DNA from: a virus | Strand: one strand, 5' to 3' | Virus record (IMG/VR): IMGVR_UViG_3300025821_000001 | DNA: 60,097 nucleotides | In this document: piece after piece, positions 37,355-57,736 of the stretch | Position numbering within the stretch: the stretch's first letter is position 1 | Layout: every line of letters starts with the position of its first letter | Program-made: the position numbers and the translations under genes | The notes under the pieces: model-generated | Seen by the model: only the letters and a program-made list of their open reading frames with translations | Told to the model about the DNA's origin: nothing | The model's database searches: none

Positions 37355-37622
37355 TATCCTTTTTCAGCCCTGTACTGGAAAAAATCCTAATCCAAGCATA
37401 CAGTAGTTTTATTAGTACAAGTAGAAGATAATAACTCCACTGACTTTTATTGCACAGTATTTGTACTTAAGAGGAAAAACATTTAAAATAACCCCTACTT
37501 ACGCCAACGTTATCTGTTGCGATTAGGCTCCCTTATTCTAAGCGGGGGTATGGCACTTTTTCAAGCTGCTCCCATACGATGTATTTTATTAGACTGCAAG
37601 TTTTATATGAGCAATCTAAATG

Positions 37623-37630
37623 CAAAGATA
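37623..37630 (-). promoter_or_regulatory. promoter -7 box TATCTTTG firing into ORF-free DNA
   Basis: Minus-strand TATCTTTG with A/T-rich upstream sequence; no ORF longer than 11 codons for the next roughly 630 nt. Confidence 0.35.
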
Positions 37631-37673
37631 TAAATAAATTTTAATAAAAAACGCATTGTGTGATATTTTTTCT

Positions 37674-37681
37674 TATATTCG
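37674..37681 (+). promoter_or_regulatory. possible promoter -7 box TATATTCG (one mismatch) for the helicase gene
   Basis: 21 nt upstream of ATG 37703. Confidence 0.2.
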
Positions 37682-37702
37682 TATAAGAAATTGAATATCA
37701 AT

Positions 37703-39076
37703 ATGTTTAAACTAAGAGACTATCAAACAAACGCTGTTAATGACGCTTTAGGATTTATAAAAGATAAATCAGGTAGGGCTTCTTTGTTAGTACTCCCAAC
37801 AGGCGCAGGAAAGTCTTTAGTTATTGCAAATATAGCTAAAGAAATAAACCAACCTGTTTTGGTTATACAGCCGTCAAAAGAGTTGCTGATACAGAATTAT
37901 GAAAAGTATAAATCTTACGGATTAGAGGCGTCAATATATTCAGCGTCTATGGGTATAAAAGAGTTGGGTCATGTGACATTTGCTACACCGAGGTCAATAG
38001 CCAAACACCACCCTTTAATAAGAAAGAAAAATATTAAGTTGGTAATTGTAGATGAAGCGCATTATGGCAGTTCAGTGGGACAAACCTTAGACACTTTTTG
38101 TAAAAAGGCGGGGGTTGAAAAGATAATAGGATTAACAGCTACTCCTGTATTATTAGCTAATGGAATGTTTGGTTCTGAGTTAAGAATGTTAAATAGAACA
38201 AAGAAGTCAATTTATCAAAAGATACTTCACGTTACTCAAATAGAAGACTTGTGTAATGACGGATATTGGACTAAGCTAGAATACGAGCCGATAAAAACAG
38301 ACACAAAACAACTTAAGTTGAACTCTAGTGGTAGTGAGTTCTTAGAGGAGTCTGTCAGAAAATACTACCAAGCTAACGAGATGAACGACAAAATAAAAGA
38401 TTCTTGTGACCAACTGATAGAAGAGGGAAGAAACCACATACTTTGCTTTGTTTCATTAGTTGACGAGGCAAAAGAGTTACAGAGAAAGATGAAATCATAT
38501 AGTACTGTAATATATGGAGATATGCCAAGTAAAGACAGAGAAAGGGCAATTAATAGCTTTAAAAGCGGTAAAATAAAAATTGCTATTAATGTAAATGTTT
38601 TAGGTACTGGGTTTGATTTTCCTAAGTTAGATGGATGTGTTCACGCAAGACCAACAAGCAGTATAGGAATATACTACCAACACTTAGGTAGATTGGTAAG
38701 GACACACCCCGATAAAAAAGACGCAAAAATTATTGACCTTTCAAGTAATTACTTTAGGTTTGGTAAATTAGAGGGTATAAGATTTGAACTGTCAACAGAT
38801 GCTAATGGTTGGTGTATGAGATCGGGTAAAAAAATACTTACTGTTTTTAGTAGACCCGATGTTGAGGTTGAATACAAACCGAAATTAAGAAAAGAGGTAC
38901 AGAACATAAACACTTATATAATACCTTTTGGTAAGTATAAGGATAAAAAGGTAACAGAAGTACCCTTAAATTATTTAAAGTGGATAGCGTCAGACGAGTT
39001 TAGTGGAGAGTACAGTAAAGCTGCGCAATTTAAAACCGCAGCAAAAATAAGGCTCGCATTAGAATCCCCCGCATAA
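37703..39076 (+). CDS. SF2 DEAD/DEAH-box DNA helicase
   Basis: Walker A LPTGAGKS, DEAH box VDEAH, motif III TATP, motif VI QHLGRLVR. I prefer ATG 37703 over the TTG at 37691 used by the track. Confidence 0.8.
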   Translation: MFKLRDYQTNAVNDALGFIKDKSGRASLLVLPTGAGKSLVIANIAKEINQPVLVIQPSKELLIQNYEKYKSYGLEASIYSASMGIKELGHVTFATPRSIAKHHPLIRKKNIKLVIVDEAHYGSSVGQTLDTFCKKAGVEKIIGLTATPVLLANGMFGSELRMLNRTKKSIYQKILHVTQIEDLCNDGYWTKLEYEPIKTDTKQLKLNSSGSEFLEESVRKYYQANEMNDKIKDSCDQLIEEGRNHILCFVSLVDEAKELQRKMKSYSTVIYGDMPSKDRERAINSFKSGKIKIAINVNVLGTGFDFPKLDGCVHARPTSSIGIYYQHLGRLVRTHPDKKDAKIIDLSSNYFRFGKLEGIRFELSTDANGWCMRSGKKILTVFSRPDVEVEYKPKLRKEVQNINTYIIPFGKYKDKKVTEVPLNYLKWIASDEFSGEYSKAAQFKTAAKIRLALESPA

Positions 39077-39108
39077 ACCACAAGAATTAAAACTGTATAA
39101 AGAAACCA

Positions 39109-39137
39109 CTTAACATAAATTTAACATTGACTGTAAC
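39109..39137. repeat. phased TTAAC array (opposite orientation)
   Basis: CTTAAC at 39109, TTTAAC at 39120 (+11), TGTAAC at 39132 (+12); upstream of 39161. Confidence 0.45.
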
Positions 39138-39148
39138 AGATTAATTAT

Positions 39149-39156
39149 TACTATTG
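39149..39156 (+). promoter_or_regulatory. TACTATTG box (variant -7 box or start-context element)
   Basis: Same octamer at 54446 and 56552; 4 nt upstream of ATG 39161. Confidence 0.3.
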
Positions 39157-39160
39157 TACT

Positions 39161-39355
39161 ATGAAACTAAAAAAGAAAGTAGAAGTAACCCACTACTGCC
39201 CCAAGTATAACAGCAAGACAAGAACACTTATTGACGCAAAGGATGAAGAAGGTCTGTTTAGCATTTGGAATAAGGGTACAGCAGTAAAAAGAACAGTGAC
39301 TAATAGGGGGTGGTACTTAACTCTATCAATAAACAACAAATTCAAACTGATATGA
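39161..39355 (+). CDS. hypothetical protein (64 aa)
   Basis: ORF track; TACTATTG box 4 nt upstream. Confidence 0.5.
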   Translation: MKLKKKVEVTHYCPKYNSKTRTLIDAKDEEGLFSIWNKGTAVKRTVTNRGWYLTLSINNKFKLI

Positions 39356-39624
39356 AAGATAAAGAAACAGCAACATTTTTAATTAGGCTATTAGCTATAT
39401 CAGTATTAGCTTTACTTCTTAGCTTTTTTGTTAATGCGGGGGAACAAAGCGGTTCGTACTGCGATGGATTTGACATGGGATACGCTGCGGGGTATTGTTA
39501 TCAAGAGCCTAACTGCATAGCACCAATCCCCCCAATATGCCCAGTACCAACAGTAAATGAAGAGAATACTTACGAGGGAGGATACGCAAGAGGATTTAGT
39601 GAAGGATTAAATGACAATAATTAA
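39352..39624 (+). CDS. small membrane protein with Cys/Pro-rich ectodomain (90 aa)
   Basis: ATG 39352 overlaps the upstream TGA (ATGA). One TM segment (FLIRLLAISVLALLLSFF), then CDGFDMGYAAGYCYQEPNCIAPIPPICPVP. Confidence 0.5.
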   Translation: MKDKETATFLIRLLAISVLALLLSFFVNAGEQSGSYCDGFDMGYAAGYCYQEPNCIAPIPPICPVPTVNEENTYEGGYARGFSEGLNDNN

Positions 39625-39632
39625 AAGAAACT

Positions 39633-39824
39633 ATGAAAAATTACTTTAAGTTTATATTTAGAAACCCACAGTCAGCATTTGTATTTGCAACATTGTTGGT
39701 GTTTTCTATATCAATACCCCTAACAGAGTACAGCAGAGAAGACTTTAGCTTTTTTACGCTATTCTTTACAGGAATGTTTGTGGCATTTATTATTGTAAGT
39801 TATGTAAATTATAAAAATAGATAG
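39633..39824 (+). CDS. small membrane protein (63 aa)
   Basis: Two hydrophobic segments; ORF track. Confidence 0.5.
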   Translation: MKNYFKFIFRNPQSAFVFATLLVFSISIPLTEYSREDFSFFTLFFTGMFVAFIIVSYVNYKNR

Positions 39825-39826
39825 AT

Positions 39827-40069
39827 ATGAAAGACAACGTAAACCCCGATCACTACAAGATAAGAGGAAAAGAAGTGTGGGAAATGATGATAGATGTTTA
39901 TGGCATGGCGCATTTTAAAGCCTTCTGCGAGCTTAACTCATTCAAGTACCGTATGAGAGCAGGTAAAAAGGGCGATAACGCCTTAGAAGACATTAAAAAA
40001 GCATTGTGGTACGAAAATAAAGTCAAAGAGATAGAAGAATTAGATTTTACTAATGTGACATACACTTAA
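39827..40069 (+). CDS. DUF3310-family phage protein
   Basis: NPDHY...FCELNSFKYRMRAGKKG...EDIKKALWY matches my recollection of the DUF3310 signature. Confidence 0.55.
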   Translation: MKDNVNPDHYKIRGKEVWEMMIDVYGMAHFKAFCELNSFKYRMRAGKKGDNALEDIKKALWYENKVKEIEELDFTNVTYT

Positions 40070-40074
40070 TAAAT

Positions 40075-40626
40075 ATGATGAGAAAATACATAAACAGAAA
40101 CTACCCTGACTTCACAGCAGAACAGAGGGCAGATGGAAACTACAACCTAAAGAAAGAGGGAAGCTACGGTTACACTATTAGAATAGCTAAGGATATAGAG
40201 AATAATGAGGATTGGGTGGAAGAGTCTAATTGGTATTTAGAGGCACTTAAAGAATTTAACGAGAGTTGGAGAGAGGAATGCGAAAGAATTGAAAATGCTA
40301 TTTGGGGTAGCGGTAATAAACCATCAGATAAGTATGAAGGGTTCTTCAAGACCGTCCTAGATAACGTGGATAGTGTAAAAGATGCACATACCACTGACTA
40401 TATGTACGTTTCTACTGAAAAGTGCCTAAGATACCATGAAAATAGAGCTTGTCCCCCCGCAGAAAAGCCAAAAGAGAAGAAACCTGACGAAATCCTTTCA
40501 GTAAGAGTAGGTGGAAAGAAGTACAAACTAAAAGACCCCCACAAAAACAGCAAAATACACTCTTTTTTTACCAACGGGTCGGATATTTGGGTATCTTTGT
40601 TTTGTGGAGAACAATATAAACTGTAA
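40075..40626 (+). CDS. hypothetical protein (183 aa)
   Basis: ORF track; no motif recognised. Confidence 0.6.
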   Translation: MMRKYINRNYPDFTAEQRADGNYNLKKEGSYGYTIRIAKDIENNEDWVEESNWYLEALKEFNESWREECERIENAIWGSGNKPSDKYEGFFKTVLDNVDSVKDAHTTDYMYVSTEKCLRYHENRACPPAEKPKEKKPDEILSVRVGGKKYKLKDPHKNSKIHSFFTNGSDIWVSLFCGEQYKL

Positions 40627-40628
40627 CT

Positions 40629-41015
40629 ATGAGTCACATTAGAGTAAAAACAAGAGTAACCTTAGAGGGTATATATGGCTCTACAGAAGAAGTTACAATG
40701 TACGCTGACCACAACAATTCATCAGACTACACAACTATATATCTTTCATCATCCAATGGAAGAATAACTCAAGGGATAGATTCTTTTGGTGAGTGGGGAG
40801 ATAGAGATGAGTGGACAGCACTACAAGACCTTATGCATCCATATAAAGAAGATGGGACGCTGTTAGATGAGGTAGAACATTACTGTGACTTGGAGTGGGA
40901 TGAGGAAAATAAAACTTATTTTGAAAAGCCTTATAATGACTCTGTGTACGAAAACAACCCTGACATTAAGAGACCAACACCCCCGCAAAGAACAACAAAA
41001 CTAAAACTGCCATGA
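40629..41015 (+). CDS. hypothetical protein (128 aa)
   Basis: ORF track; no motif recognised. Confidence 0.6.
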   Translation: MSHIRVKTRVTLEGIYGSTEEVTMYADHNNSSDYTTIYLSSSNGRITQGIDSFGEWGDRDEWTALQDLMHPYKEDGTLLDEVEHYCDLEWDEENKTYFEKPYNDSVYENNPDIKRPTPPQRTTKLKLP

Positions 41016-41119
41016 AATGTAAACACTGTAACAAAGAACTAAACAATACCCTAATAGATATCCTACTCCACGAAGAAGACTGCATAGAGAGAGAGATAAT
41101 CCCCTCTAATAACACATAA
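41012..41119 (+). CDS. hypothetical small protein (35 aa; below the track cutoff)
   Basis: ATGA overlap with upstream stop; MKCKHCNKELNNTLIDILLHEEDCIEREIIPSNNT*. Confidence 0.3.
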   Translation: MKCKHCNKELNNTLIDILLHEEDCIEREIIPSNNT

Positions 41120-41328
41120 AGAGAGAAAAAGAAAAAATTTTTTTTTTGTTTGTGTGCAGATACTGAGTAGGTATTATACAGTATAAAAAAATTAGAACTT
41201 TTTAAAAAAAAACCAACACCTCAAAGCACCCCCTACCAAGCCAATCCGCCCCAATTAACCCGAGTAACAAAATGAGTCATAGGATCAAATGCCGAGTGCA
41301 GGTCTATAAATATAATTGAATCTCGCAA

Positions 41329-41367
41329 GTTAAGTTTACGTTAAGTTAATGTTACCGCAATGTTAAG
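41329..41367. repeat. four GTTAAG-type sites phased at exactly 11 bp (iteron/operator-like array)
   Basis: GTTAAG at 41329, 41340 and 41362; GTTACC at 41351. Confidence 0.7.
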
Positions 41368-41429
41368 ATTTCAATTCTTAATTCTCTGTAATGCCTATGA
41401 ACACTACAAAGTTTAAATTGATTGTAAAA

Positions 41430-41437
41430 TATATTTG
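41430..41437 (+). promoter_or_regulatory. promoter -7 box TATATTTG
   Basis: 25 nt upstream of ATG 41463, at the end of the 340-bp non-coding region. Confidence 0.45.
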
Positions 41438-41462
41438 CATACTATAGAAACTCTATGTAGTT

Positions 41463-41738
41463 ATGCAGTCAAATCAAAACAAAGGAAATATGAAAATCTT
41501 AGCAAAAAATTTAGAAATAGGAATGGAAATTTATTCAAGCCCAAATCATTGTTTTAAAATAGATTCTTTAGAATTTGGAATTTACAAAGCGTCTAATACT
41601 TTGAAAGTAATTGCTAGTGGTACTACAAGAAAATTTACAGATAGTAAATCTGTTTATTGGGTTAAATGTATAAATACAAAAAATCTAAAAGGAAATACAG
41701 AAATAGAAGTAAATACATTTCCAAATAAACCATTATAA
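41463..41738 (+). CDS. hypothetical protein (91 aa)
   Basis: ORF track; TATATTTG box at 41430-41437. Confidence 0.55.
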   Translation: MQSNQNKGNMKILAKNLEIGMEIYSSPNHCFKIDSLEFGIYKASNTLKVIASGTTRKFTDSKSVYWVKCINTKNLKGNTEIEVNTFPNKPL

Positions 41739-41760
41739 TAATATCTTAATTTAAGAAACT

Positions 41761-42012
41761 ATGAGACAATTCAAAACAACGTTAGGGTTAACAAATGAGG
41801 GGGGCGGGTACGCCTTCCCTTTATCATTCAGTATTGAACCACAAAGGAGGGCTGTAACCCCCGCAAAGAACGTCAAGTTATATGCTGTCAATGTTTACTC
41901 AATAAGACACGCTAAGAACAGCTTAGAACGCTTTAGAACAGCTAAAGAAGCAAGCCAATTCATTGAACGAATCAACAAAGAGAATATTTTTCTCGCTAAC
42001 ATTATCAAATAA
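41761..42012 (+). CDS. hypothetical protein (83 aa)
   Basis: ORF track; GAAACTATG start context shared with several neighbours. Confidence 0.5.
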   Translation: MRQFKTTLGLTNEGGGYAFPLSFSIEPQRRAVTPAKNVKLYAVNVYSIRHAKNSLERFRTAKEASQFIERINKENIFLANIIK

Positions 42013-42021
42013 AAGGAAACT

Positions 42022-42243
42022 ATGAACGCAGAAACAACAAACCAATTCTTTAAAGAGTCAACTATATCAAACATTATCATGTTAGCCGAGCGCATACATG
42101 GTAGAAGTGTAGTAAGTACTTTACAAAAGTATAGCCATAAAAGTCTAAATAAATTAGACTTGGATAGTTTGGAATCTATAAGGGATGCGGCAATTATCGT
42201 ATATAATAACAAAGCAAAGCGCAACGAATTGCACGAAATTTAA
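42022..42243 (+). CDS. hypothetical protein (73 aa)
   Basis: ORF track; followed by a hairpin plus T-tract. Confidence 0.5.
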   Translation: MNAETTNQFFKESTISNIIMLAERIHGRSVVSTLQKYSHKSLNKLDLDSLESIRDAAIIVYNNKAKRNELHEI

Positions 42244-42278
42244 CCCCCGCAATAGCTACAAAACAATAACAGCAAATT

Positions 42279-42304
42279 AGCCTCCTTAATTGGGGGCTTT
42301 TTTT
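42279..42304 (+). terminator. rho-independent terminator between convergent genes
   Basis: AGCCTCC-TTAATT-GGGGGCT (one G-T pair) followed by TTTTTT. It lies after 42022-42243 and abuts the stop of the minus-strand RHH gene. Confidence 0.65.
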
Positions 42305-42560
42305 ATGCCCTATTCTTTGAGATACTTCTAAACAGTTCAGACCTACTTAAAGGGCGTTCTGTTGGCGTTTCTTTTTTCTTTGGTTGCTTAATCTGTTTAA
42401 CTTGTTTTGGGGGCTTAGATTCGTCCTTTGTTACTTTGTCGGGGGCTAAACTTGTTTCAATAAGTAGATTGATCGCTTTGCTTATACTAACGCCCTTTTG
42501 TTTTGCGTACTCAGCTATCAATATTTCGTTAGCCCTGTTTAAATAAATTCCTTTTGTCAT
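42303..42560 (-). CDS. ribbon-helix-helix (CopG/Arc-like) DNA-binding regulator
   Basis: The N-terminus KGIYLNRANEILIAEYAKQKGVSISKAINLLIE fits a strand-helix-helix pattern. It has a basic, Pro/Lys-rich tail, is the lone minus-strand gene in the plus arm, and has palindromes just upstream. Confidence 0.55.
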   Translation of the reverse strand: MTKGIYLNRANEILIAEYAKQKGVSISKAINLLIETSLAPDKVTKDESKPPKQVKQIKQPKKKETPTERPLSRSELFRSISKNRA

Positions 42561-42570
42561 TACAATATGT

Positions 42571-42584
42571 TATATAATTATATA
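42571..42584. promoter_or_regulatory. perfect 14-bp palindrome TATATAATTATATA next to the RHH gene start
   Basis: Self-complementary; 11 nt from ATG 42560 (minus). Confidence 0.6.
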
Positions 42585-42590
42585 GTACAC

Positions 42591-42624
42591 TAGTATACTA
42601 CTATACTAATAGACTAGTATACTA
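42591..42624. promoter_or_regulatory. two copies of the perfect 10-bp palindrome TAGTATACTA (within ACTAGTATACTA), 24 bp apart: operator candidates
   Basis: 42591-42600 and 42615-42624; a TATACTA half-site lies between them. Confidence 0.6.
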
Positions 42625-42755
42625 TTAAAAGGTTGCTTTTTATCCTTTTGTACGGATAGATAGAGGACGTATAAAACCCCCATAAACTTTACCCCAATAA
42701 ACTAAACATAACAGCCAATACAGCTAAACCCCTTTAAACACTAGCCTTTTAGAAT

Positions 42756-42818
42756 ACCCTACTAACCCGATAGACTTATATATTATCTATTCTATTACCC
42801 TACTAACTTACTAGACTT
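42756..42818. repeat. 22-bp direct repeat ACCCTACTAAC-N5-AGACTT, two copies 41 bp apart
   Basis: 42756-42777 accctactaacccgatagactt and 42797-42818 accctactaacttactagactt. Confidence 0.7.
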
Positions 42819-42875
42819 CTTATTCCTTAACAATTTGGTAACATAGGTAATACTTTTAGTTAATGTAAAGTGCTG

Positions 42876-42883
42876 TATGTTTG
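42876..42883 (+). promoter_or_regulatory. promoter -7 box TATGTTTG
   Basis: The 12-mer GTATGTTTGCTG is identical to the one at 49203-49214; 80 nt upstream of ATG 42964. Confidence 0.45.
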
Positions 42884-42963
42884 CTGTATAGAAATCAAAT
42901 AATAGTTCTTGCCCTTGTTACTTTATGCGGGGGCTTTAATTAACTAAAAAAGAAAATAACAAG

Positions 42964-43592: not shown

Positions 43593-43654
43593 ATTAGCTT
43601 TATATTTACTTAATACGCGGGGGTTATCTTCGCCTTATCAAAACAAACAAACAA

Positions 43655-44080
43655 ATGGGAAATATTAGAAACTTTATCGAATCAGTAACTACAAATGGGG
43701 GCGCAAGCCTTAACATTAACAACGGAGAATTAAACCCAACAAAAGGTTATTTTGTATCCGTTGCGGGGGCGGAAAATAAGATCAATGACTTTAATGGTGA
43801 CGATCTTAAAAATTACATCCTCGAAAACGCTGAACTGCTCAACACTGAAAATGTATTTCTTGGAGGTTGGATGCACAAAGGCGAAATCTACCTTGACTGC
43901 AGTCAGCAAATAGCCGACAAACGAACGGCAATTATAAAAGGTATGGAGCGCGGACAAATTGCAATATACGATGCAGCAAAAGGTAAGGAAATACTATTGC
44001 CTACTGCACAGAAATGCGGCACAGAAACACAAAAGAAAACGTATATGAGTCAAAAAGCTACTGAACTATGCGAAAACTAA
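43655..44080 (+). CDS. hypothetical protein (141 aa)
   Basis: ORF track; no motif recognised. Confidence 0.6.
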   Translation: MGNIRNFIESVTTNGGASLNINNGELNPTKGYFVSVAGAENKINDFNGDDLKNYILENAELLNTENVFLGGWMHKGEIYLDCSQQIADKRTAIIKGMERGQIAIYDAAKGKEILLPTAQKCGTETQKKTYMSQKATELCEN

Positions 44081-44547: not shown

Positions 44548-44583
44548 AACCAATAAACAAATAGGTGATGTCTTACCATCAAA
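44548..44583 (+). promoter_or_regulatory. conserved intergenic element copy A (AACCAATAAACAAATAGGTGATG-loop-CCATCAA)
   Basis: Contains hairpin TGATG-TCTTAC-CATCA; ends 6 nt before ATG 44590. Confidence 0.6.
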
Positions 44584-44589
44584 TCAATT

Positions 44590-44922
44590 ATGAAAACTAT
44601 AAAAGTTAAATCCGCTTTAGGATATAGAGAAAGTGATTTAGAAAATACTACTTCAAATGATGATGCTTATGAAAAAGCATTTGATTCAATGGATGTAAAC
44701 AACGCAAAATCAACTGAAGTAGTATCTGTCAATATACTAGAATTAGCTAGTGAGTTAGCAGATATGCAGCTTAAATTGGTGTGGGGTGAAACAAGGAAAG
44801 GTCTATATGAAGATGAAGATGCTTGCATAACCACATATAGTGATGAAGCGCAAGACATATTTAATGATTTGTACGATAAGTATTATTCATTAATAGAAAG
44901 TATTCAAGAAGTAAACAACTAA
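44590..44922 (+). CDS. hypothetical acidic protein (110 aa)
   Basis: ORF track; D/E-rich; preceded by the conserved hairpin element. Confidence 0.55.
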   Translation: MKTIKVKSALGYRESDLENTTSNDDAYEKAFDSMDVNNAKSTEVVSVNILELASELADMQLKLVWGETRKGLYEDEDACITTYSDEAQDIFNDLYDKYYSLIESIQEVNN

Positions 44923-44961
44923 TATGCTGAAAAAGTTTTAAAAGAAAAATCAAATCAAAAT

Positions 44962-44986
44962 CAAATAGGTGATGGCTTACCATCAA
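44962..44986 (+). promoter_or_regulatory. conserved intergenic element copy B (CAAATAGGTGATGGCTTACCATCAA)
   Basis: Hairpin TGATGG-CTTA-CCATCA; ends 7 nt before ATG 44994. Confidence 0.6.
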
Positions 44987-44993
44987 TTAAATT

Positions 44994-45455
44994 ATGAGAA
45001 CAATAGAAACAAAAATTTATACGATAGACGAGCATCCTGACCAAGATAAATGCTTTGAATGGATTAGAAATAATATATATGATTTGAATGAATGTTCAGT
45101 ACATGAAGTAGTAGATAGCCTGAAAGCATTACAAAAAGTAATTGGTGGAGACTTAGATTATTCAATCGGTCAATCACCTGATAGAGGAGAATTTATAACA
45201 TTCAAAAACTACGATGAGGATTCGCTTAAAGAACTTAATGCTGATGAATGTCCACTAACAGGAGTATGTTGGGATGCTGACTTAATTAAAAGTATGCAAG
45301 CAGATGAAGATGCTTACTTTTATTCTATTACTACTACCAATGGTGTATTGCGAGCATTGCATGAAGACACTGAGTACATTTATTCAGATGAAGGATTACG
45401 AGAGCTTTGCGAGGCAAATGAATATGAATTTACAGAAGAAGGTGAAAAAATATAA
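44994..45455 (+). CDS. hypothetical acidic protein (153 aa)
   Basis: ORF track; D/E-rich; preceded by the conserved hairpin element. Confidence 0.6.
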   Translation: MRTIETKIYTIDEHPDQDKCFEWIRNNIYDLNECSVHEVVDSLKALQKVIGGDLDYSIGQSPDRGEFITFKNYDEDSLKELNADECPLTGVCWDADLIKSMQADEDAYFYSITTTNGVLRALHEDTEYIYSDEGLRELCEANEYEFTEEGEKI

Positions 45456-46223: not shown

Positions 46224-46370
46224 ATGAAAACAATCGAACACAGCTACCAAGTAAGCAAGATGCTAGAGGTAATGAACAGTAGTATTATTGCGGGGGGCTA
46301 CCCCGACTACGAAGAAGGTGCTACATATATACTCTGCATGAACGGCAAAGCTCAAACATATTTAAACTAG
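46224..46370 (+). CDS. hypothetical small protein (48 aa; below the track cutoff)
   Basis: MKTIEHSYQVSKMLEVMNSSIIAGGYPDYEEGATYILCMNGKAQTYLN*; GGAAACTATG start context. Confidence 0.35.
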   Translation: MKTIEHSYQVSKMLEVMNSSIIAGGYPDYEEGATYILCMNGKAQTYLN

Positions 46371-49152: not shown

Positions 49153-49203
49153 TCCTTAACATTAACATAACATGAAAGGCTTGTTCACTCTATCCTTTCT
49201 TTG

Positions 49204-49211
49204 TATGTTTG
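49204..49211 (+). promoter_or_regulatory. promoter -7 box TATGTTTG
   Basis: GTATGTTTGCTG as at 42875-42886; 23 nt upstream of ATG 49235. Confidence 0.45.
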
Positions 49212-49234
49212 CTGGATAAATAAAAATTAAACCG

Positions 49235-49952: not shown

Positions 49953-50681
49953 ATGAGTATTTCAAGCGATGACAAACAAAAGAACCCTTCTACTAAATTT
50001 GTAGAGTGGAGTGGGGGTGATGGTAAGTTTTACTATTACGACAAAGAAAAGAAGGAAAAGGTAGATATGCCTACGAAGTTTCAAATAGTAGGACTAGATG
50101 AACTAGCGACCATTAAAGGTTACGATGAGAAGGCTTCATCAGGTGTATACAGTAATGAGGTGAAGAATACCACCCAAGAAATCTTAATAGTAAAGAACTT
50201 TAAGGGGGACTTATTAGCTAAAGGACTATATCAATCCATTAAAGGTGACCTAAGTGGGGGTAAGTATACTAAAAGTATATACGCAGCACTTGTTAAAAAG
50301 GGTGGCGCAGTAGAACTTATAAACCTTTCTATTAAAGGTTCAGCACTTAGTCCTTGGATTGATGCTAAGATTAATATTAGTGGTGGGTTTGTAATTACTT
50401 GTGGTATTAATCCCGAAGAGAAGAAGAAAGGGAGGACAGTTTACTTTGAGCCTAGCTTTGAAGCAAAGCCTCTACCCGAAGGAGAGATTAGAGATACAGT
50501 AGTACAACTTGATGCGGAGGTTCTTCAACCTTACCTTAAGCAGTATTTTTCTACACCTGCTCAAGAGGAGAATGATGCTTGGGATAACTCTAAGCAAGAG
50601 AGGACAGAAGCACCTGAGCCTGTAATAGCTGCACCTATAAGTGTAGAGGATGATGAAGAATCAGATGACCTACCCTTCTGA
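49953..50681 (+). CDS. single-stranded DNA-binding protein
   Basis: 242 aa ending in the acidic tail VEDDEESDDLPF (compare E. coli SSB ...DDDIPF and the acidic T7 gp2.5 tail); lies between the primase-helicase and the polymerase. Confidence 0.6.
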   Translation: MSISSDDKQKNPSTKFVEWSGGDGKFYYYDKEKKEKVDMPTKFQIVGLDELATIKGYDEKASSGVYSNEVKNTTQEILIVKNFKGDLLAKGLYQSIKGDLSGGKYTKSIYAALVKKGGAVELINLSIKGSALSPWIDAKINISGGFVITCGINPEEKKKGRTVYFEPSFEAKPLPEGEIRDTVVQLDAEVLQPYLKQYFSTPAQEENDAWDNSKQERTEAPEPVIAAPISVEDDEESDDLPF

Positions 50682-50704: not shown

Positions 50705-50766
50705 AAACCCCCGCTAAATCTTAGAATAAATCTCTTGGAAGAGGCTACTTTTTGGCGGGGGTTTTT
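50705..50766 (+). terminator. long-loop hairpin plus T-tract after the SSB gene
   Basis: AAACCCCCGC (50705-50714) pairs with GCGGGGGTTT (50755-50764). The 40-nt loop contains the small hairpin CTCTT-GG-AAGAG, and the stem is followed by TTTTT. Confidence 0.5.
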
Positions 50767-50781: not shown

Positions 50782-50934
50782 ATGCTATCAGAAAGAACAA
50801 AAATAGCTATTAAGTTTTGGGGAGGGATTCCCCCACGAAAGATAGCAAAGCAACTAAACAGAAGTGAGAGTTGGGTATCCACTCAGACAGATATAATAAT
50901 GGCTACAAGACCTAGATATGATAACAGAGGATGA
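50782..50934 (+). CDS. small helix-turn-helix protein (50 aa)
   Basis: I prefer ATG 50782 (MLSERTKIAIKFWGGIPPRKIAKQLNRSESWVSTQ...) because the TTG at 50752 lies inside the terminator stem. HTH-like IAKQLNRSESWV. Confidence 0.45.
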   Translation: MLSERTKIAIKFWGGIPPRKIAKQLNRSESWVSTQTDIIMATRPRYDNRG

Positions 50935-51409
50935 TTATGAAATATTTGTTAGGTACGCTAAGAGTTTACTGTTTAAAGACTCACAAGTAGCCCCCCAAGA
51001 TATAGTACACAATGTAATCCTAAAGGGTATCCAAGAGAACCACTCAATAAGGTATATGATGTACAACATAAGAATGTCTGTTCTTGGTAAGGATAGGGGG
51101 AAAAGAGTAACAACAGATGTTATGCCCCCACAAACAGTAGAACCATCAGCCCATAAAGAGATAGAGGTAAAGGAGTTTATGACAGCCTTAGATAACATAA
51201 TGATTTATAAGCGTGGGGGTAACGGAGGTAGAAGCAAGACAGTAGACATAAACAAGACACATAAGGCTAAGACGATAGTAAGAATGTCTTACGAGGGGTA
51301 TTCTCAAAAAGAGATTAGTAAGGTTGTGGATATGGATAGTGTAGCTATCAGCAACCTTAGACTTAAGGTGATGAAAAGAATTAAACAACAATTAGAGATA
51401 AAAGGATGA
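50918..51409 (+). CDS. ECF-like sigma-70 family factor
   Basis: Region-2-like FVRYAKSLLFKD...PQDIVHNVILKGI and region-4.2-like KTIVRMSYEGYSQKEISKVVDMDSVAISNLRLKVMKRIKQQL. Confidence 0.55.
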   Translation: MITEDDYEIFVRYAKSLLFKDSQVAPQDIVHNVILKGIQENHSIRYMMYNIRMSVLGKDRGKRVTTDVMPPQTVEPSAHKEIEVKEFMTALDNIMIYKRGGNGGRSKTVDINKTHKAKTIVRMSYEGYSQKEISKVVDMDSVAISNLRLKVMKRIKQQLEIKG

Positions 51410-53635: not shown

Positions 53636-53989
53636 ATGCTAACAGAAATTGAATTAATAACTGACGCACTAGGAGAAAGGGTAGACCCCTCAAGCCCTCT
53701 TGACGTATGGAGTAAACTAGAGAACTGTGTATCCCTTTTAGGTAACGCTGCAAGAATAGAATCAGAAGCACAGATGAACTACGCCTCAGAGCGTAATAGA
53801 CTATTACTAGATGGTATTGTAAAGAAGAGTGACAGTACAGGACACATTGAATCTTATATGCCCTCAGTGGTAGAGCAGAAGTGTTTATGTGAGAACCTTC
53901 AACGTAACTTAAAGGAAGCTATTGAGGGATTAAGAACTATGCTGTCATACCTAAAGACAGAAGAGAATAACAGTAAAAATTATCAATGA
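53636..53989 (+). CDS. hypothetical protein (117 aa)
   Basis: ORF track. Confidence 0.55.
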   Translation: MLTEIELITDALGERVDPSSPLDVWSKLENCVSLLGNAARIESEAQMNYASERNRLLLDGIVKKSDSTGHIESYMPSVVEQKCLCENLQRNLKEAIEGLRTMLSYLKTEENNSKNYQ

Positions 53990-54423
53990 CCTTAAAATCT
54001 AAGAATAAAAAGTGTATCTCCTGCGGAAGAGAAGATCAACCCCACTTCTCTAAGAAACGTTGTAAGGCTTGCGCTCAAAAAGATTACGCAAAGAAAGCTC
54101 AACAGAAGCGGGAAGAGGGGTTCACTATATCCTCTTCTCCACCCAAGAAAAAGACTAATAAGGATACCAAGTATAAACAGATTTATTTTGATTACTTTGG
54201 TTACACGGAGGGGGACTTCATTCCTTGTGAAATATGTGGAAAGGAAGCTGTTGATATACACCACATAGATGCAAGGGGTATGGGAGGAGACCCCACAAAA
54301 TCAAAAGAAAATATAGAAAACCTCATGGCTCTTTGTAGAGAAGATCACGAAACATATGGGGATATAACAGAGTATAAGGGATTGTTAAAGTTAATCCACA
54401 AGAAAAAGTTAACTTTGCCTTAA
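53986..54423 (+). CDS. HNH endonuclease with N-terminal zinc ribbon
   Basis: CISCG...CKAC, then CEICGKEAVDIHHIDARGMGGD...NLMALCREDHE (H-N-H pattern). Confidence 0.6.
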   Translation: MTLKSKNKKCISCGREDQPHFSKKRCKACAQKDYAKKAQQKREEGFTISSSPPKKKTNKDTKYKQIYFDYFGYTEGDFIPCEICGKEAVDIHHIDARGMGGDPTKSKENIENLMALCREDHETYGDITEYKGLLKLIHKKKLTLP

Positions 54424-54445
54424 CATACCGCATTAATAGTTTGTT

Positions 54446-54453
54446 TACTATTG
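54446..54453 (+). promoter_or_regulatory. TACTATTG box
   Basis: 4 nt upstream of ATG 54458. Confidence 0.3.
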
Positions 54454-54457
54454 TATT

Positions 54458-54786: not shown

Positions 54787-54800
54787 TAAATAAAGGGTAT

Positions 54801-55217: not shown

Positions 55218-55260
55218 CCCCGCAATAACAAAAAAGATTAAAATTTAACAACAGTAATAT

Positions 55261-56496
55261 ATGAGTAAATTAGAAGATCATAAAGACAAGGTTCTTAAAC
55301 TTCACAACGAAGGATTGAGTTCTCGAAAGATAGTAGCAACCCTACTACAAGAGATAGGGGAGAAGTTTAGTAAGAGTACGGTTAACTACGCTTTGAAGGA
55401 TTGGTTAGATAATGAAAGTAGCACTGAACAGAACGAAGAGAACTACAGCGATAACCTCATAGGTACAGATGCCTTTAAGGATTACTGTGCGCGAGAGGGG
55501 ATAGACGTTACTAAGGTAAGGAGTGCTAAATATGTGAATCATGCGGGGCAGCAGAAGTTTAATATCGTCCTTGACTACAAAGAAGAGGAGAGTGTGGACT
55601 CTATTGACTTTAAATCTGTCATTGATGATATTGTAGGTAGTACTTACACACCTAAAGGCAGTTATCACTTTGGGTGTGGGGAGTTGGTAACTAGATTAGT
55701 TTACACAGACACTCACATTGCTATGTGTACAGACATTGAGGAGACTTCTATGTACGCTACCCCTTGGGATGAGAAATCTCTTATGGAAACCCTTGAGATA
55801 ATGTGTGAGTATGTCAAGGAGAATAGAGTAGGCTCTACATTAATCATTGATGACCTTGGAGATGTACTCGATGGTTGGGATGGTTACACCACTCGCGGGG
55901 GGCATAAGCTCCCACAGAATATGTCAAACCAAAAAGCATTTAAGGTAGCCTTACATTTTAAGATGGCTATGCTTGACATACTTAATCCATACTTTGATAC
56001 TATCATCTGTCACAATGTATCAGCAGATAATCATTCTGGTTCGTTCGCTATGATACTTAATCACGCTTTCATGCGTGTAGCTGTTGAGAAGTACGACAAT
56101 GTTGAGGTTATAAACTATGAGAAGTTTATTGAGCATTACTTTGTAGGTCGTCATGCTTTTGTGTTGACTCACGGTAAAGATCACAAGAGTTTAAAGTTTG
56201 GGTTCAAGCCTAAGTTAGACTCTGTTCAGATTGAGAAGATAGAGCATTACCTTAAGCACAATCAACAAGGCAGTGTGTACAAGACTGCTGACTTTATATG
56301 GGTAGACAAAGGCGACAGCCACCAGCTTTTATTTGATTACTCCACAGCCCAAGATTTTATGTACATGAATCATATTGCACTATCTCCTGCATCAGAATGG
56401 GTAATGACAAATTATAAAAAAGGAGAAAGGGGGTTCACAATTCAACAGATAGACCCCCAAGATAAGAACATTAAACTATTACCTATTATACTCTAA
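55261..56496 (+). CDS. metallophosphoesterase (Mre11/SbcD-like) with N-terminal HTH
   Basis: Calcineurin-type motif series VYTDTH, DDLGDVLDG, SADNHSG and LTHGKDH. N-terminal LHNEGLSSRKIVATLL...STVNYALK resembles an HTH. Confidence 0.5.
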   Translation: MSKLEDHKDKVLKLHNEGLSSRKIVATLLQEIGEKFSKSTVNYALKDWLDNESSTEQNEENYSDNLIGTDAFKDYCAREGIDVTKVRSAKYVNHAGQQKFNIVLDYKEEESVDSIDFKSVIDDIVGSTYTPKGSYHFGCGELVTRLVYTDTHIAMCTDIEETSMYATPWDEKSLMETLEIMCEYVKENRVGSTLIIDDLGDVLDGWDGYTTRGGHKLPQNMSNQKAFKVALHFKMAMLDILNPYFDTIICHNVSADNHSGSFAMILNHAFMRVAVEKYDNVEVINYEKFIEHYFVGRHAFVLTHGKDHKSLKFGFKPKLDSVQIEKIEHYLKHNQQGSVYKTADFIWVDKGDSHQLLFDYSTAQDFMYMNHIALSPASEWVMTNYKKGERGFTIQQIDPQDKNIKLLPIIL

Positions 56497-56519
56497 TATT
56501 ACCTTAACGTTAAATTTAA

Positions 56520-56549
56520 AGGGGATGCTTGTTTGGTATCCCCTTTTTT
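56520..56549 (+). terminator. rho-independent terminator
   Basis: AGGGGAT-GCTTGTTTGGT-ATCCCCT followed by TTTTTT; 24 nt after stop 56496. Confidence 0.7.
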
Positions 56550-56551
56550 AG

Positions 56552-56559
56552 TACTATTG
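56552..56559 (+). promoter_or_regulatory. TACTATTG box
   Basis: 17 nt upstream of ATG 56577, directly after a terminator. Confidence 0.3.
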
Positions 56560-56576
56560 CTTTATAATTAAAAGTT

Positions 56577-56729
56577 ATGACTATAGAAGAATTTTTATTA
56601 CTGTTCTACATAGGCACTATGATGTGTGCTATGTTACACTGTTACTATCATACTAATGACAGTGGTCTTACTATTTTTGCGGGGGTGTTTGCTCCCCTTT
56701 ATATATACCTTTATATATTTAAAAGATGA
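56577..56729 (+). CDS. small membrane protein (50 aa; below the track cutoff)
   Basis: MTIEEFLLLFYIGTMMCAMLHCYYHTNDSGLTIFAGVFAPLYIYLYIFKR*; two hydrophobic segments; TACTATTG box upstream. Confidence 0.4.
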   Translation: MTIEEFLLLFYIGTMMCAMLHCYYHTNDSGLTIFAGVFAPLYIYLYIFKR

Positions 56730-56893
56730 CACACCTACAATCAGCAATATGGAATGAGGCTAAAGCCTTTATCACAAATGGAGACCCCACAAACAATAAA
56801 GAGTTTGGAGATAAACTAAGGGCAATCATAGATTTTTTAACACAAGTACAAGCACAACGTGATGAAGCGTACAGTCAAGTAAAAAAGAAATAA
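56726..56893 (+). CDS. hypothetical small protein (55 aa; below the track cutoff)
   Basis: ATGA overlap with upstream stop; MTHLQSAIWNEAKAFITNGDPTNNKEFGDKLRAIIDFLTQVQAQRDEAYSQVKKK*. Confidence 0.35.
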   Translation: MTHLQSAIWNEAKAFITNGDPTNNKEFGDKLRAIIDFLTQVQAQRDEAYSQVKKK

Positions 56894-56932
56894 TAATTTT
56901 GGATTTGAATCCAAGAAAAGTATAATAATTTA

Positions 56933-57736
56933 ATGAATAAATCAGAACAATACCTAAAGGAAAAGTTTGACTCTACAGTTTGGTCGTATTCTCGTATAGC
57001 TTCTTTTTACTCTTGTCCCTACAGTTTCTATGATACTTATATTCTAGGTAACAGAAGAAGTAACTTTCATGCTTATGTGGGAAGTGCTGTTCACTCTGTC
57101 TTAGAGGACTTCTACAGGTATCATTTGGCGGGGGGTCACAGCCTTTACAATTCAGATATACGAAAGACCCTCACAACTAAGTTTGACATAGCCATGAAGT
57201 CTAACCCCCACCACAATGAGGTGTACCCAAAGGTAAGAGAGGGAGTGTACAGAAATGTAAAGAGGGGATTAAACCTCTTTGTACCCCAGTATGACATCAT
57301 TCATGTGGAGCGTAAGATAGAGTACAAGATAGAAGGCTACAGTTTCCAAGCCTATTTGGATTACGAAAAGAGACTAAGGGTAGGGGATTATAAGAGTAAG
57401 CATGACAGAGATTACTCCACCCAACAGAATCTATATATGTACGCTAAGAAAGAAGCAGATGGTGTAGCCCCCACAGGATATGAGATAGTAGCTTACAAGG
57501 AAGGAATGGAGAATGTGTTTACCCCTTGGGATAGAGACAGTGTATATGACTCCCTTGAGTGGGCTGTACAGGGGATAAAAGATATACGACAAGCGTTAGT
57601 AGATGACAGCTTCCCTAAGACTCCTCCTATTAATGAGAAGAAGCCTGACGATAAGTTCTTTTGTGAGGCTCTTTGCAGGGGGTGTGAAGAAAGTGGGTCA
57701 AGTGAGTTTAATGAATCTAAAGAATTTGAATTATGA
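56933..57736 (+). CDS. PD-(D/E)XK exonuclease, Cas4/RecB-like
   Basis: N-terminal WSYSRIASFYSCPYSFY, core LDYEKRLRVGDYKSK, QQNLYMY, and C-terminal Cys triad FCEALCRGCEE (four-Cys Cas4 pattern). Confidence 0.6.
   Translation: MNKSEQYLKEKFDSTVWSYSRIASFYSCPYSFYDTYILGNRRSNFHAYVGSAVHSVLEDFYRYHLAGGHSLYNSDIRKTLTTKFDIAMKSNPHHNEVYPKVREGVYRNVKRGLNLFVPQYDIIHVERKIEYKIEGYSFQAYLDYEKRLRVGDYKSKHDRDYSTQQNLYMYAKKEADGVAPTGYEIVAYKEGMENVFTPWDRDSVYDSLEWAVQGIKDIRQALVDDSFPKTPPINEKKPDDKFFCEALCRGCEESGSSEFNESKEFEL

Follow-up and report, generated by a model that had tools for sequence, protein, structure and literature searches.

The heptamer GCGGGGG is truly over-represented in the genome of a podophage of Bacteroidota, lytic by its look and with a putative Flavobacterium-like host, and the signal lies in DNA, not in RNA or protein. 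Exact search of the window, meaning the whole 60,097-nt stretch analysed here (G+C 37.5%), finds 24 copies, 17 on the plus strand and 7 on the minus strand. The enrichment, its origin in codon choice, its DNA level, its strand and regional asymmetry and the turnover of its sites are supported directly. Among candidate roles we rank first a Chi-like signal of the kind carried by phages LLS, MD8 and P1, which would tame the host AddAB/RecBCD nuclease; drawn by analogy, this reading is tentative, a serious possibility rather than a probability. The exact search recovers all 24 positions listed in the initial annotation, and the copies, with the paired structures that hold some of them, are distributed as follows.

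6359-6365, plus: copy antisense in a 2414-aa late gene; sense codons CCC-CGC (Pro-Arg)
18090-18096, plus: copy antisense in a 1300-aa late gene; ACC-CCC-GCA
20495-20501, plus: copy antisense in the same 1300-aa late gene; CCC-CGC
25922-25947, no strand: perfect 8-bp, terminator-like hairpin GGGCGGGG-N10-CCCCGCCC between two late genes, with a copy at 25924 (plus) and a 6-mer at 25940; z -3.7 and -6.1
30660-30666, plus: copy antisense in an 809-aa late gene; GCC-CCC-GCA
37542-37548, plus: copy in the divergent intergenic region, first early gene 149 nt downstream
38108-38114, plus: copy in the RadD/SNF2-like helicase gene; Ala-Gly GCG-GGG
39066-39072, minus: copy in the end codons of the RadD/SNF2-like helicase gene, TCC-CCC-GCA-TAA
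39436-39442, plus: copy in a small early gene (39310-39624); Ala-Gly GCG-GGG
40454-40460, minus: copy antisense in gene 40075-40626; CCC-CCC-GCA
40980-40986, minus: copy antisense in gene 40629-41015; CCC-CCG-CAA, within a 15-mer shared with 41857
41858-41864, minus: copy antisense in gene 41761-42012; small local hairpin
42244-42250, minus: copy directly 3' of the stop codon that closes the first early operon; left edge of a 720-bp non-coding/regulatory region
42927-42933, plus: copy bordering that region (42244-42963) on the right, 37 nt before the start codon at 42964; 3' arm of a hairpin GCCC..N..GGGC
43617-43623, plus: intergenic copy; start codon 43655 is 38 nt downstream
43763-43769, plus: copy as Ala-Gly GCG-GGG; lacking in strain-level relative L003 (GTT-GGA)
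46290-46296, plus: copy as Ala-Gly GCG-GGG; 5-bp local hairpin
46554-46560, minus: copy antisense in gene 46379-46723; CCC-CCC-GCA
47644-47650, plus: copy in the primase-helicase gene; Ala-Gly GCG-GGG
50705-50766, no strand: inverted pair AAACCCCCGC-N40-GCGGGGGTTT with a long loop, in the spacer between SSB-like and sigma-region-4-like genes; copies at 50708 (minus) and 50755 (plus)
55895-55901, plus: copy in a 411-aa gene, frame 1 CGC-GGG-GGG; lacking in strain-level relative L005
56679-56685, plus: copy as Ala-Gly GCG-GGG; small hairpin with a T-rich run behind it
57128-57134, plus: copy in the PD-(D/E)XK exonuclease gene; Ala-Gly GCG-GGG

The count exceeds every simple expectation. An order-0 model predicts 0.98 copies on both strands together, which bears out the earlier estimate of about one, and Markov models of orders 1 to 4 give 0.85, 2.3, 5.9 and 8.8 in turn, so that the excess over low-order expectation is about 25-fold. 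The order-5 model already expects 19.7, since the enrichment is present at the 6-mer level as well, the GCGGGG core occurring 26 times on the plus and 14 times on the minus strand, which matches the roughly 40 copies first counted by eye. Among all 7-mers GCGGGGG ranks first in over-representation at Markov orders 1 and 3, and TGCGGGG second. In 1000 synonymous-codon shuffles, made within genes or within arms with intergenic copies left untouched, the mean was about 8, of which about 7 were the fixed intergenic copies, and the maximum was 15 within genes and 13 within arms; the plus arm alone, where 19 copies are observed, gave a mean of 6 and a maximum of 11. The excess thus withstands both the Markov and the codon-preserving nulls against which the initial annotation had wanted it set.

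About 17 of the 24 copies lie inside ORFs, where, as noted at first, the word spans codon borders and several reading frames are in use. Ala-Gly is written GCG-GGG in 12 of the 15 pairs in plus-strand (early) genes, where codon usage predicts about 0.45, and in 4 of the 63 pairs in minus-strand (late) genes; in the original list of such pairs one coordinate, 55553, should be 55543. Antisense copies mainly read xCC-CCC-GCA. Synonymous opportunities to form the word are taken in 14 of 43 cases in early genes and in 4 of 102 in late genes (p = 9e-6). The pattern can be read only as selection, or another directed process, acting on the nucleic acid itself.

Since both orientations are enriched in plus-strand genes, where they yield unrelated RNA words, the signal belongs to DNA. 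The initial proposal of selection at the DNA or RNA level therefore keeps its first half and loses its second: folding revealed no general structure at the 24 sites (mean z about -0.4, pairing probability equal to that of the flank-shuffled null). The two hairpins described earlier, at 25922-25947 and 50705-50766, are both present. The flanks are non-random, as had been claimed, with T at 50-65% from position -12 to -1 and at 58% at both +1 and +2; T directly follows 14 of the 24 copies and TT follows 10. The 14-mer reported as identical at 40979 and 41857 is so, and the identity in fact extends over 15 nt.

Could the word be a by-product without any single function, arising from a liking for G-runs, matched third codon positions and the reuse of GC stems for terminators? 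G-runs do exceed codon shuffles (GGGG 460 against 314±15; GGGGG 132 against 90±9), adjacent codons often share their third base (GCA-GGA, GCT-GGT, GCG-GGG), hairpins hold about 6 copies, if only that many, and the order-5 expectation points the same way. However, only the prefixes GC, GT and TC are enriched ahead of GGGGG, while AAGGGGG and TTGGGGG are not; near-cognates are also enriched only if they keep CGGGGG or GGGGG (TCGGGGG 11, GTGGGGG 15), and internal one-mismatch variants of GCGGGGG show no enrichment. The order-3 expectation falls well below the count, the word includes CpG, a dinucleotide in which the genome is depleted (O/E 0.57), and the dependence on arm and orientation, seen in the Ala-Gly pairs and in the 0 of 68 sense opportunities taken in late genes, is more than a genome-wide mutational or translational bias can produce. 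An origin as a by-product is accordingly quite improbable.

The Chi-like reading is favoured because GCGGGGG is the top 7-mer despite CpG depletion and no synonymous shuffle reaches 24, because the word is short, asymmetric and G-rich with GCGG inside, and because its copies are split 17:7 between strands, with the plus orientation alone in late genes, and clustered at decaying density from the start of the early arm. The closest published parallels are the Chi-rich phages of Zheng, Casjens, Davidson, Amundsen & Smith (2025, Genome Res., PMC12315714): E. coli phage LLS has 23 Chi sites, oriented 20:3 and half of them in the terminal 22% of the genome, P. aeruginosa MD8 has 32 (32:0) and E. coli P1 has 50, and the runner-up word in LLS and P1 is the T-prefixed shifted word. 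As in these phages, a short, G-rich, asymmetric word is here the commonest k-mer, present in tens of copies (about one per 1-2 kb, against about one expected), biased in strand, clustered in one part of the genome and unexplained by codon usage; overlapping or one-off words are frequent too, TGCGGGG matching the T-prefixed runner-up. Unlike theirs, which is a host Chi known by experiment in phages whose growth depends on RecBCD or RecA, the word here is known from sequence statistics, and its orientation bias is weaker. The phage studied here is also a lytic-looking podophage rather than a lambdoid. It encodes its own exonuclease and junction resolvase (endonuclease I), while Rec modules are missing from the Chi-rich phages of the LLS class; these nucleases count against the Chi-like reading.

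AddAB-type Chi sites, such as AGCGG in B. subtilis, GAAGCGG in S. aureus and GCGCGTG in L. lactis, the last GC-rich in an AT-rich genome, likewise have 5-7 nt, are G-rich and asymmetric and contain GCG or GCGG; they were defined outside Bacteroidota, and GCGGGGG is a candidate only. Under the Chi-like reading, GCGGGGG, and more loosely K-Y-GGGGG with a T-rich 5' flank, would be an orientation-sensitive DNA-level signal, of which the lineage would have gathered copies through single-nucleotide changes that in many cases are synonymous, a high copy number being useful. A host end-processing helicase-nuclease (AddAB in Bacteroidota, or RecBCD) would read it on the 3'-ended strand and, instead of degrading phage DNA, begin to load RecA; broken forks and exposed ends would be protected and recombination-dependent concatemer formation fed, and the production of CRISPR spacer substrates could also be limited. 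Exposed ends are implied by the T7-like replication gene set (SSB, PolA, primase-helicase, exonuclease, endonuclease I), which suggests linear or concatemeric intermediates. We know of no counterpart of the T-rich 5' flank in known Chi, which weighs against the Chi-like reading, as does the IMG/VR seed scan, which found no unrelated AT-rich phage with GCGGGGG ranked first; convergence among unrelated phages sharing the host would have spoken strongly for it. The word is absent from one random Bacteroidota fragment (13 kb, 36% G+C), our literature search found no Chi sequence for any Bacteroidota, and the B. fragilis AddAB paper gives the Chi site there as not known (PMC2887965).

Concentration in the replication arm, proposed from the outset, is evident, the 20-kb early arm holding 19 of the 24 copies and the late 40 kb only 5, about one per 8 kb. 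Synonymous opportunities are used less and less along the genome: 6 of 9 in the 5 kb that open the early arm, 8 of 34 in the rest of that arm and 4 of 102 in late genes. The near saturation of those first 5 kb in both orientations also fits a protein that binds double-stranded DNA irrespective of orientation, and to that extent counts against a Chi-like signal. Such a protein, phage-encoded or delivered by the virion, would mark or coat the first-entering early DNA and serve in protection, compaction, early transcription activation or origin function; candidates are a 163-aa sigma-region-4/DnaA_C-like protein, the RHH protein and small early proteins. T-tracts such as the one beside the motif are typically found where DNA is recognised by indirect readout, copies flank the 42244-42963 region and occupy the spacer 5' of the sigma-like gene, and helix-turn-helix proteins are encoded beside PolA in all relatives. 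We nevertheless consider such a binder unlikely: most copies lie in ORFs, the word is single and asymmetric, neither palindrome nor iteron, the RHH gene already has obvious operator repeats of its own, and late genes use the plus orientation only (4 of 34 opportunities, against 0 of 68 in sense, p = 0.011), which an orientation-blind binder does not predict.

Polarity within the early arm brings the non-coding region into play.

42244-42963, no strand: largest non-coding region of the genome (720 bp), where motif polarity changes
42279-42305: terminator within it
42303-42560, minus: divergent RHH gene within it

This candidate control or origin region, which also has ACTAGTATACTA operator-like repeats and a promoter-like repeat, is preceded by minus copies and followed mainly by plus copies. 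Five of the six copies at 39066-42244 are minus, including four in succession from 40454 to 42244; they sit 1.6-5 kb from the divergent junction, which is also a contig end in two independent assemblies of relatives, and would be suitably oriented for an enzyme entering a putative left end there, a further reason to favour the Chi-like reading. The 12 plus copies of the early arm are wrongly oriented for such entry, so that a second assumption is needed, namely rightward forks from an origin near 42.3-42.9 kb, and the two-domain polarity test falls short of significance (p = 0.08); both points count against the Chi-like reading.

Lagging-strand sites around an origin would likewise show a strand bias whose polarity switches at the largest intergenic region. 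The word might then be a priming site of the phage primase-helicase, whose primers would start opposite ...GGGGG-T(T) with a stable, GC-rich 5'-A-CCCCC-GC, copies gathering on the lagging-strand template. T7 primase sites are 5'-GGGTC and TGGTC (GGGTC giving pppACCC) and those of T4 are 5'-GTT and GCT; they resemble GCGGGGG in a template-strand G-run followed by T, in strand-specific use and in many dispersed intragenic copies, and the T so often found after the motif and the T7-like replisome agree with this. Those sites are, however, 3-5 nt long and not conspicuously over-represented, and the primase here belongs to another family (BT4734-like N-terminal domain plus helicase, not a DnaG-type zinc-finger primase). 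The late arm is too sparsely covered for Okazaki priming, both orientations approach saturation in the first 5 kb, and the polarity result (p = 0.08) counts against priming as well; this reading, too, seems doubtful.

Phages with site-specific nicks, such as T5 and LUZ24-like phages, use short consensus words chiefly on one strand. A target for T5-like single-strand interruptions by the phage HNH nuclease (gene at 53986-54423, early arm), or for base modification, would accommodate this and the CCCGC within the word, which we take to be the FauI site of Flavobacterium aquatile. This is very unlikely: we know of nothing that would favour extra sites for nicking or modification, restriction targets are usually avoided rather than enriched, and no methyltransferase or base-modification gene was found among about 40 phage proteins scanned. 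FtsK KOPS (GGGNAGGG) and SpoIIIE SRS, skewed G-rich chromosome words that guide DNA translocases, share the orientation-biased G-rich oligomer and a DNA-tracking enzyme as reader (for GCGGGGG, a proposed one), but they are chromosomal, polarised to dif and required for segregation, and to our knowledge a lytic phage has no need of such words.

Relatives add a test of turnover. At 59-79% protein identity the copies no longer keep their positions, which disfavours a DNA-binding protein; at 47644, GCG-GGG recurs in the 74% relative, where the 79% relative has GCT-GGG and the 70% relative AAA-GGG, sites being gained and lost by synonymous or tolerated changes. The initial annotation would have taken such lack of conservation as refutation. 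That holds literally for positions, yet the word or GTGGGGG stays enriched in relatives, as expected if number and orientation matter rather than position, so the lost positions do not refute function; retention of copy number favours the Chi-like reading and is compatible with priming. The relative whose primase is 59% identical uses GTGGGGG in its early region: of its 17 sites, 15 share a strand and 13 fall within the first 9 kb, which suggests that the specificity of the recogniser diverged together with the word. Such a co-evolving recogniser argues for a Chi-like signal, would equally suit a changing primase, and as drift from GCG to GTG by lineage fits co-evolution with a phage DNA-binding protein. 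Strain-level relatives carry additional GCGGGGG copies in mosaic segments non-homologous to the window.

The heptamer GCGGGGG (CCCCCGC where the copy lies on the minus strand; "the word" below) occurs 24 times in the window. An exact search returned every coordinate in the initial annotation, 17 on the plus and 7 on the minus strand, together with 40 copies of the hexamer GCGGGG. Markov models of order 0, 1, 2, 3 and 4 predict 0.98, 0.85, 2.3, 5.9 and 8.8 copies on both strands combined. The word is the top over-represented 7-mer at orders 1 and 3, followed by TGCGGGG and CGGGGGT, and this CpG-containing word holds its rank although CpG is depleted genome-wide (observed/expected 0.57). Codon-preserving shuffles, which the annotation had named as a check, point the same way: none of 2000 synonymous shuffles (1000 confined to single genes, 1000 to single arms) reaches 24 copies. 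Their mean is about 8, of which about 7 are intergenic copies beyond the reach of the shuffle, and their maximum is 15 within genes or 13 within arms. For the early arm, shuffles yield a mean of 6 and a maximum of 11, against 19 observed. The enrichment is real and statistically very strong.

Much of the excess inside genes is visible in codon choice. The claim that Ala-Gly is preferentially written GCG-GGG holds up: 12 of the 15 pairs in plus-strand genes take this form where codon usage predicts about 3%, or 0.45 pairs, and the number of Ala-Gly pairs in these genes is as expected. In minus-strand genes only 4 of 63 pairs do so. Antisense copies consist mainly of xCC-CCC-GCA, with a few built from CCC-CGC or CCC-CCG. 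When opportunities are counted, that is, places where the protein sequence permits the word by synonymous choice, early genes use 14 of 43 and late genes 4 of 102 (p = 9e-6). The synonymous shuffles, the opportunity counts and the contrast between arms and orientations exclude codon usage, amino-acid content and dicodon bias as explanations. Spread by a repeat or mobile element is also rejected, because with the exception of one 15-mer pair the copies have unrelated flanks. The 12 nt on the 5′ side of the word are rich in T (50-65%), even on the coding strand, which is A-rich, and downstream T occupies +1 in 14 of 24 copies and +2 in 14 of 24 (58% each), with GCGGGGGTT in 10.

Could the word simply ride on a taste for G-runs? 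Such runs are in general above codon shuffles (GGGG 460 vs 314±15), but this bias, while real, is insufficient. Only three prefixes are enriched before GGGGG, namely GC (24 vs 8.3 expected), GT (15 vs 4.9) and TC (11 vs 2.3); neither AAGGGGG nor TTGGGGG is in excess, and variants with one internal mismatch occur at expectation. A pure by-product is unlikely, since specificity for arm, orientation and prefix all count against it. Runs of G4-G5 and C4-C5 are in excess with a sharp fall at 6, the G-run counts for lengths 3 to 7 being 235, 100, 48, 6 and 2. The word also contains CCCGC, the sequence that the Flavobacterium aquatile enzyme FauI recognises. Avoidance of that restriction site is rejected, as GCGGG is enriched rather than depleted (57 copies vs 19-29 expected at orders 1-2); presumably the host has no FauI-type activity, or the DNA of the phage is shielded from it.

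Other words also exceed both Markov and synonymous-shuffle expectation across the window: TGCTGTT (39 vs 19), CTGTTG (90 vs 59), TGCTGCG (18 vs 6.5) and GGACTAGG (8 vs 1). The first three are strand-biased and probably derive from GCA/ACA/CAA-CAG codon runs. Same-codon pairs are common, as in GCA-GCA, which accounts for 37 of 116 Ala-Ala pairs, and GGACTAGG has its source in repeated protein segments at 11.5-14.1 kb.

The first and last 127 nt of the window (1-127 and 59971-60097) are identical, an exact terminal direct repeat, so the assembly closes into a circle and the genome measures 59,970 nt; its physical termini may be direct terminal repeats or permuted ends. The phage is tailed, a distant relative (29% terminase identity) of Flavobacterium phage elemo and of Cellulophaga, Tenacibaculum and Maribacter podophages. 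Its early arm encodes a RadD/SNF2-like helicase, a BT4734-type primase-helicase, an SSB-like protein, a sigma-region-4-like protein, PolA, an HNH nuclease and a PD-(D/E)XK exonuclease. The main features are as follows.

Arms and selected genes of the phage genome
~37.1 kb down to 1, then across the junction to 57.74 kb, minus strand: late genes
37.7-57.7 kb, plus strand: early (replication) arm
37691-39076, early arm: RadD-like DEAD/SNF2 helicase
49953-50681: SSB-like 242-aa protein whose acidic tail (...EESDDLPF) has the DDLPF end typical of SSBs
50918-51409: 163-aa protein with a sigma-region-4/LuxR-like C-terminal helix-turn-helix
59395-59805, minus strand, end of the late arm: homologue of T7 endonuclease I, a Holliday-junction resolvase

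Homologues of the 163-aa protein in relatives match Bac_DnaA_C or Sigma70_r4_2. Endonuclease I, the RadD-like helicase, PolA, the primase-helicase, SSB and the exonuclease together make up a T7-like DNA metabolism set. An annealing protein or RecBCD inhibitor was not recognised in the window, where many small ORFs lack an assignment. A 2414-aa late protein (4583-11827, minus strand) has DFDGD at residue 47, a motif that marks the catalytic site in crAss-like virion RNA polymerases and may be there by chance; PDB sequence searches with this protein and with a 411-aa protein gave zero matches. Three pairs of intergenic repeats lie upstream of genes: 42874-42902 and 49202-49230 (TGTATGTTTGCTG.ATA...), a repeated 50-nt hairpin-containing leader at 44555-44604 and 44959-45008, and the element TTGCAAAGTTACAAAGAA at 28481-28520 and 30955-30994. 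They resemble promoters or leaders and differ from GCGGGGG.

Nineteen copies lie in the 20-kb early arm and 5 in the other 40 kb. Density declines away from the first 5 kb of the early arm, which is near-saturated with the word in both orientations, and the use of opportunities depends on strand.

Synonymous sites realised out of those possible, by region and strand of the word
First early operon, 37.6-42.3 kb: plus 2/4, minus 4/5
Rest of the early arm: plus 7/24, minus 1/10
Late genes: plus 4/34, minus 0/68 (orientation difference p = 0.011)

Minus copies are thus confined to the early arm, none of the 68 opportunities in late genes being used. They make up five of the six copies between 39066 and 42244, and four of them in a row lead up to the border of 42244-42963, the largest non-coding region, which holds a terminator (42279-42305), a divergent ribbon-helix-helix (RHH) gene and operator-like repeats. 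Beyond it, polarity is nearly all plus. Overall the copies split 17:7, and testing for two domains of polarity returned p = 0.08, which is no more than suggestive. The terminator divides the early arm into two operons; the divergent gene, within 42303-42625, encodes an 85-aa ribbon-helix-helix-like protein (MTKGIYLNRANEILIAEYAKQKGVSISKAINLLIE...) and adjoins operator-like repeats of the ACTAGTATACTA type at 42580-42625.

At the divergent junction of the arms, independent contigs of two relatives end in homologous repeat-rich sequence. These ends (L013 1-300 and L007 1-350) contain short tandem-like repeats (AGGT.T.TGTATAGTATT...), and L013 covers exactly one arm. Such shared contig ends hint that the junction is a physical genome end or a terminal-repeat region.

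The initial annotation had proposed selection at the DNA or RNA level. The DNA half of that proposal stands, because both orientations are enriched within plus-strand genes; the RNA half falls, since the two orientations are unrelated words in mRNA and there is no general folding. The word occupies several reading frames, and in late genes the enriched orientation is the antisense one. Folds of ±40 nt around each of the 24 copies give a mean z of -0.47 for the G-strand and -0.39 for the C-strand relative to flank shuffles, and the pairing probability of the G-strand is 0.78 vs a null of 0.71. Scans of the window for tRNAs and Rfam families found none. Together, folding on both strands and these scans exclude RNA structure or terminator stems as a general cause. 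The two inverted pairs previously described do involve the word, at 25922-25947 (copies 25924/25940) and 50705-50766 (50708/50755), and otherwise it enters hairpins only at four small ones, 42927, 41858, 46290 and 56679.

An operator or promoter element is excluded as well: about 17 of the 24 copies lie within ORFs, both orientations occur in plus-strand genes, late-gene copies are antisense and positions are unconserved. A spacing of 37-38 nt to the start codon is common only to 42927 and 43617. A promoter for an RNA polymerase of the virion or the phage is rejected because copy orientation is not tied to genes; the phi14:2 paper gives no early-promoter motif for comparison.

Relatives were found through the primase-helicase and their contigs compared. 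The density of GCGGGG is 1.2 per kb in the early arm of the window and 0.69, 0.45 and 0.27 per kb in relatives at 74%, 70% and about 60% identity. At 50% identity GCGGGGG is absent and GCGGGG, at 0-0.09 per kb, is at or below chance. Conservation of individual sites, which the initial annotation had proposed to examine, is not seen: in codon alignments of primase and PolA the positions are not conserved. One primase site reads GCG-GGG in the window, GCT-GGG at 79%, GCG-GGG at 74% and AAA-GGG at 70% identity; some sites fall at variable residues, and relatives hold private ones. Strain-level contigs (89-99% nucleotide identity) have most sites in common with the window, with a few missing and extra copies in non-aligning mosaic segments. 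In the relative at 59% (L013/L014) the leading word is GTGGGGG; 15 of its 17 sites of the type G-Y-GGGGG are on the plus strand, and 13 of the 17 lie in the first 9 kb. As in the window, codon choice serves to build the word: 6 of its 22 Val-Gly pairs are written GTG-GGG and 3 of its 11 Ala-Gly pairs GCG-GGG. Site turnover, taken with the word of L013/L014, indicates that the inherited property is the presence of many G-Y-GGGGG copies in the early arm, while individual sites are not inherited and the word drifts.

The closest known kind of feature is the accumulation of Chi sites by phages, of which the word is a candidate example. Phage LLS carries 23 Chi sites in a 20:3 orientation, clustered terminally, and MD8 and P1 carry 32 and 50 (PMC12315714). 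The word is likewise short, asymmetric and G-rich, and is the top-ranked k-mer above compositional and codon expectation. We tentatively place a Chi-like role first, because a DNA word that is beneficial, copy-number-dependent, orientation-sensitive, quick to turn over and blind to genes bears the signature of Chi. If a genome end lies at the arm junction, the minus cluster would sit 1.6-5 kb inside the left end and face the way in which an enzyme of the RecBCD/AddAB type, entering there, would read it. Enzymes heading back to a putative origin at the left of the early arm would then read the plus copies elsewhere, just as Chi is read on bacterial chromosomes.

Our confidence in a Chi-like role is kept low because the plus copies of the early arm call for that additional step, saturation of the first 5 kb runs both ways, and an exonuclease and a resolvase are encoded by the phage itself. 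Twelve plus copies in the early arm misfit simple entry from an end. Phages of the LLS class have no recombination module or RecBCD inhibitor of their own, whereas this genome encodes a PD-(D/E)XK exonuclease, an SSB-like protein and the T7 endonuclease I homologue. Bacteroidota use AddAB, whose Chi is undefined there (PMC2887965). Literature searches on the word, on Chi in Bacteroidota or Flavobacteria and on skewed oligomers turned up nothing relevant, and the feature is undescribed for Bacteroidota phages in the literature searchable here. The word resembles AddAB-type Chi sequences. G-Y-GGGGG may even be the first Chi of a Bacteroidota member, revealed by a phage saturating its early region, although this is less likely than not.

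Alternatively, the recogniser may be encoded by the phage, as its primase of the BT4734 type or one of its early DNA-binding proteins, with a 7-nt specificity that would have remodelled codon choice across a whole arm. A priming site for the phage primase is favored by the G-run with T next to it and by the replisome, which is T7-like, but copies in the late arm are too few: lagging-strand copies at Okazaki spacing throughout the genome are not what is found. The other main rival is a site for a phage DNA-binding protein on the DNA that enters first. A nicking or modification target lacks a reason for enrichment.

A Chi-like role would make the word a concrete candidate for the AddAB/RecBCD control sequence in a phylum without a known one, a sequence that governs repair by recombination, the distinction of self from non-self and the uptake of CRISPR spacers. 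Phage sequence alone would then yield the recognition site of flavobacterial AddAB, and Chi hoarding, described for lambdoid phages that infect Proteobacteria, would extend as a general strategy to lytic podophages in another phylum. If a phage protein reads it instead, this would be a rare case of a 7-nt DNA signal overriding codon usage over 20 kb (12 of 15 Ala-Gly pairs recoded), pointing to a new step of early DNA metabolism in Bacteroidota podophages. Whichever reading holds, mutational and biochemical tests can be designed directly from the word, the map of its orientations and its thinning out from one genome junction.

Flavobacterium phage elemo has zero copies of the word. Among the matches listed by a scan of IMG/VR with TTCTTTGCGGGGGT (at least 120 loci), the word is top-ranked in no unrelated contig that is AT-rich, and one random 13-kb Bacteroidota fragment (T9SS-domain query), uninformative by itself, has 0 copies. 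On the host side, a scan of genome contigs with the GroEL of phage elemo gave two irrelevant MAG contigs and no Flavobacteriia, and 16S matches in the plasmid collection were limited to rRNA-only records. Different words are abundant in other phages. L009, a 61-kb relative at 50% primase identity, has no GCGGGGG and carries TGTAGTA/TTACTAC 33 times vs 4.7 expected. In Maribacter phage Panino (PP540027.1, 1-50000), GCTGTGG occurs 23 times on both strands vs 2.4 expected, and TGATAGTG 23 times vs 1.3, with a strand split of 2:21. Two unrelated IMG/VR contigs of 43% G+C (L102 and L115), in which the word is not top-ranked, have 12-14 copies of GCGGGG in 9-10 kb. Nearly every copy is on the same strand, all three frames are represented, and many copies fall in a 1261-aa ORF (3512-7297).
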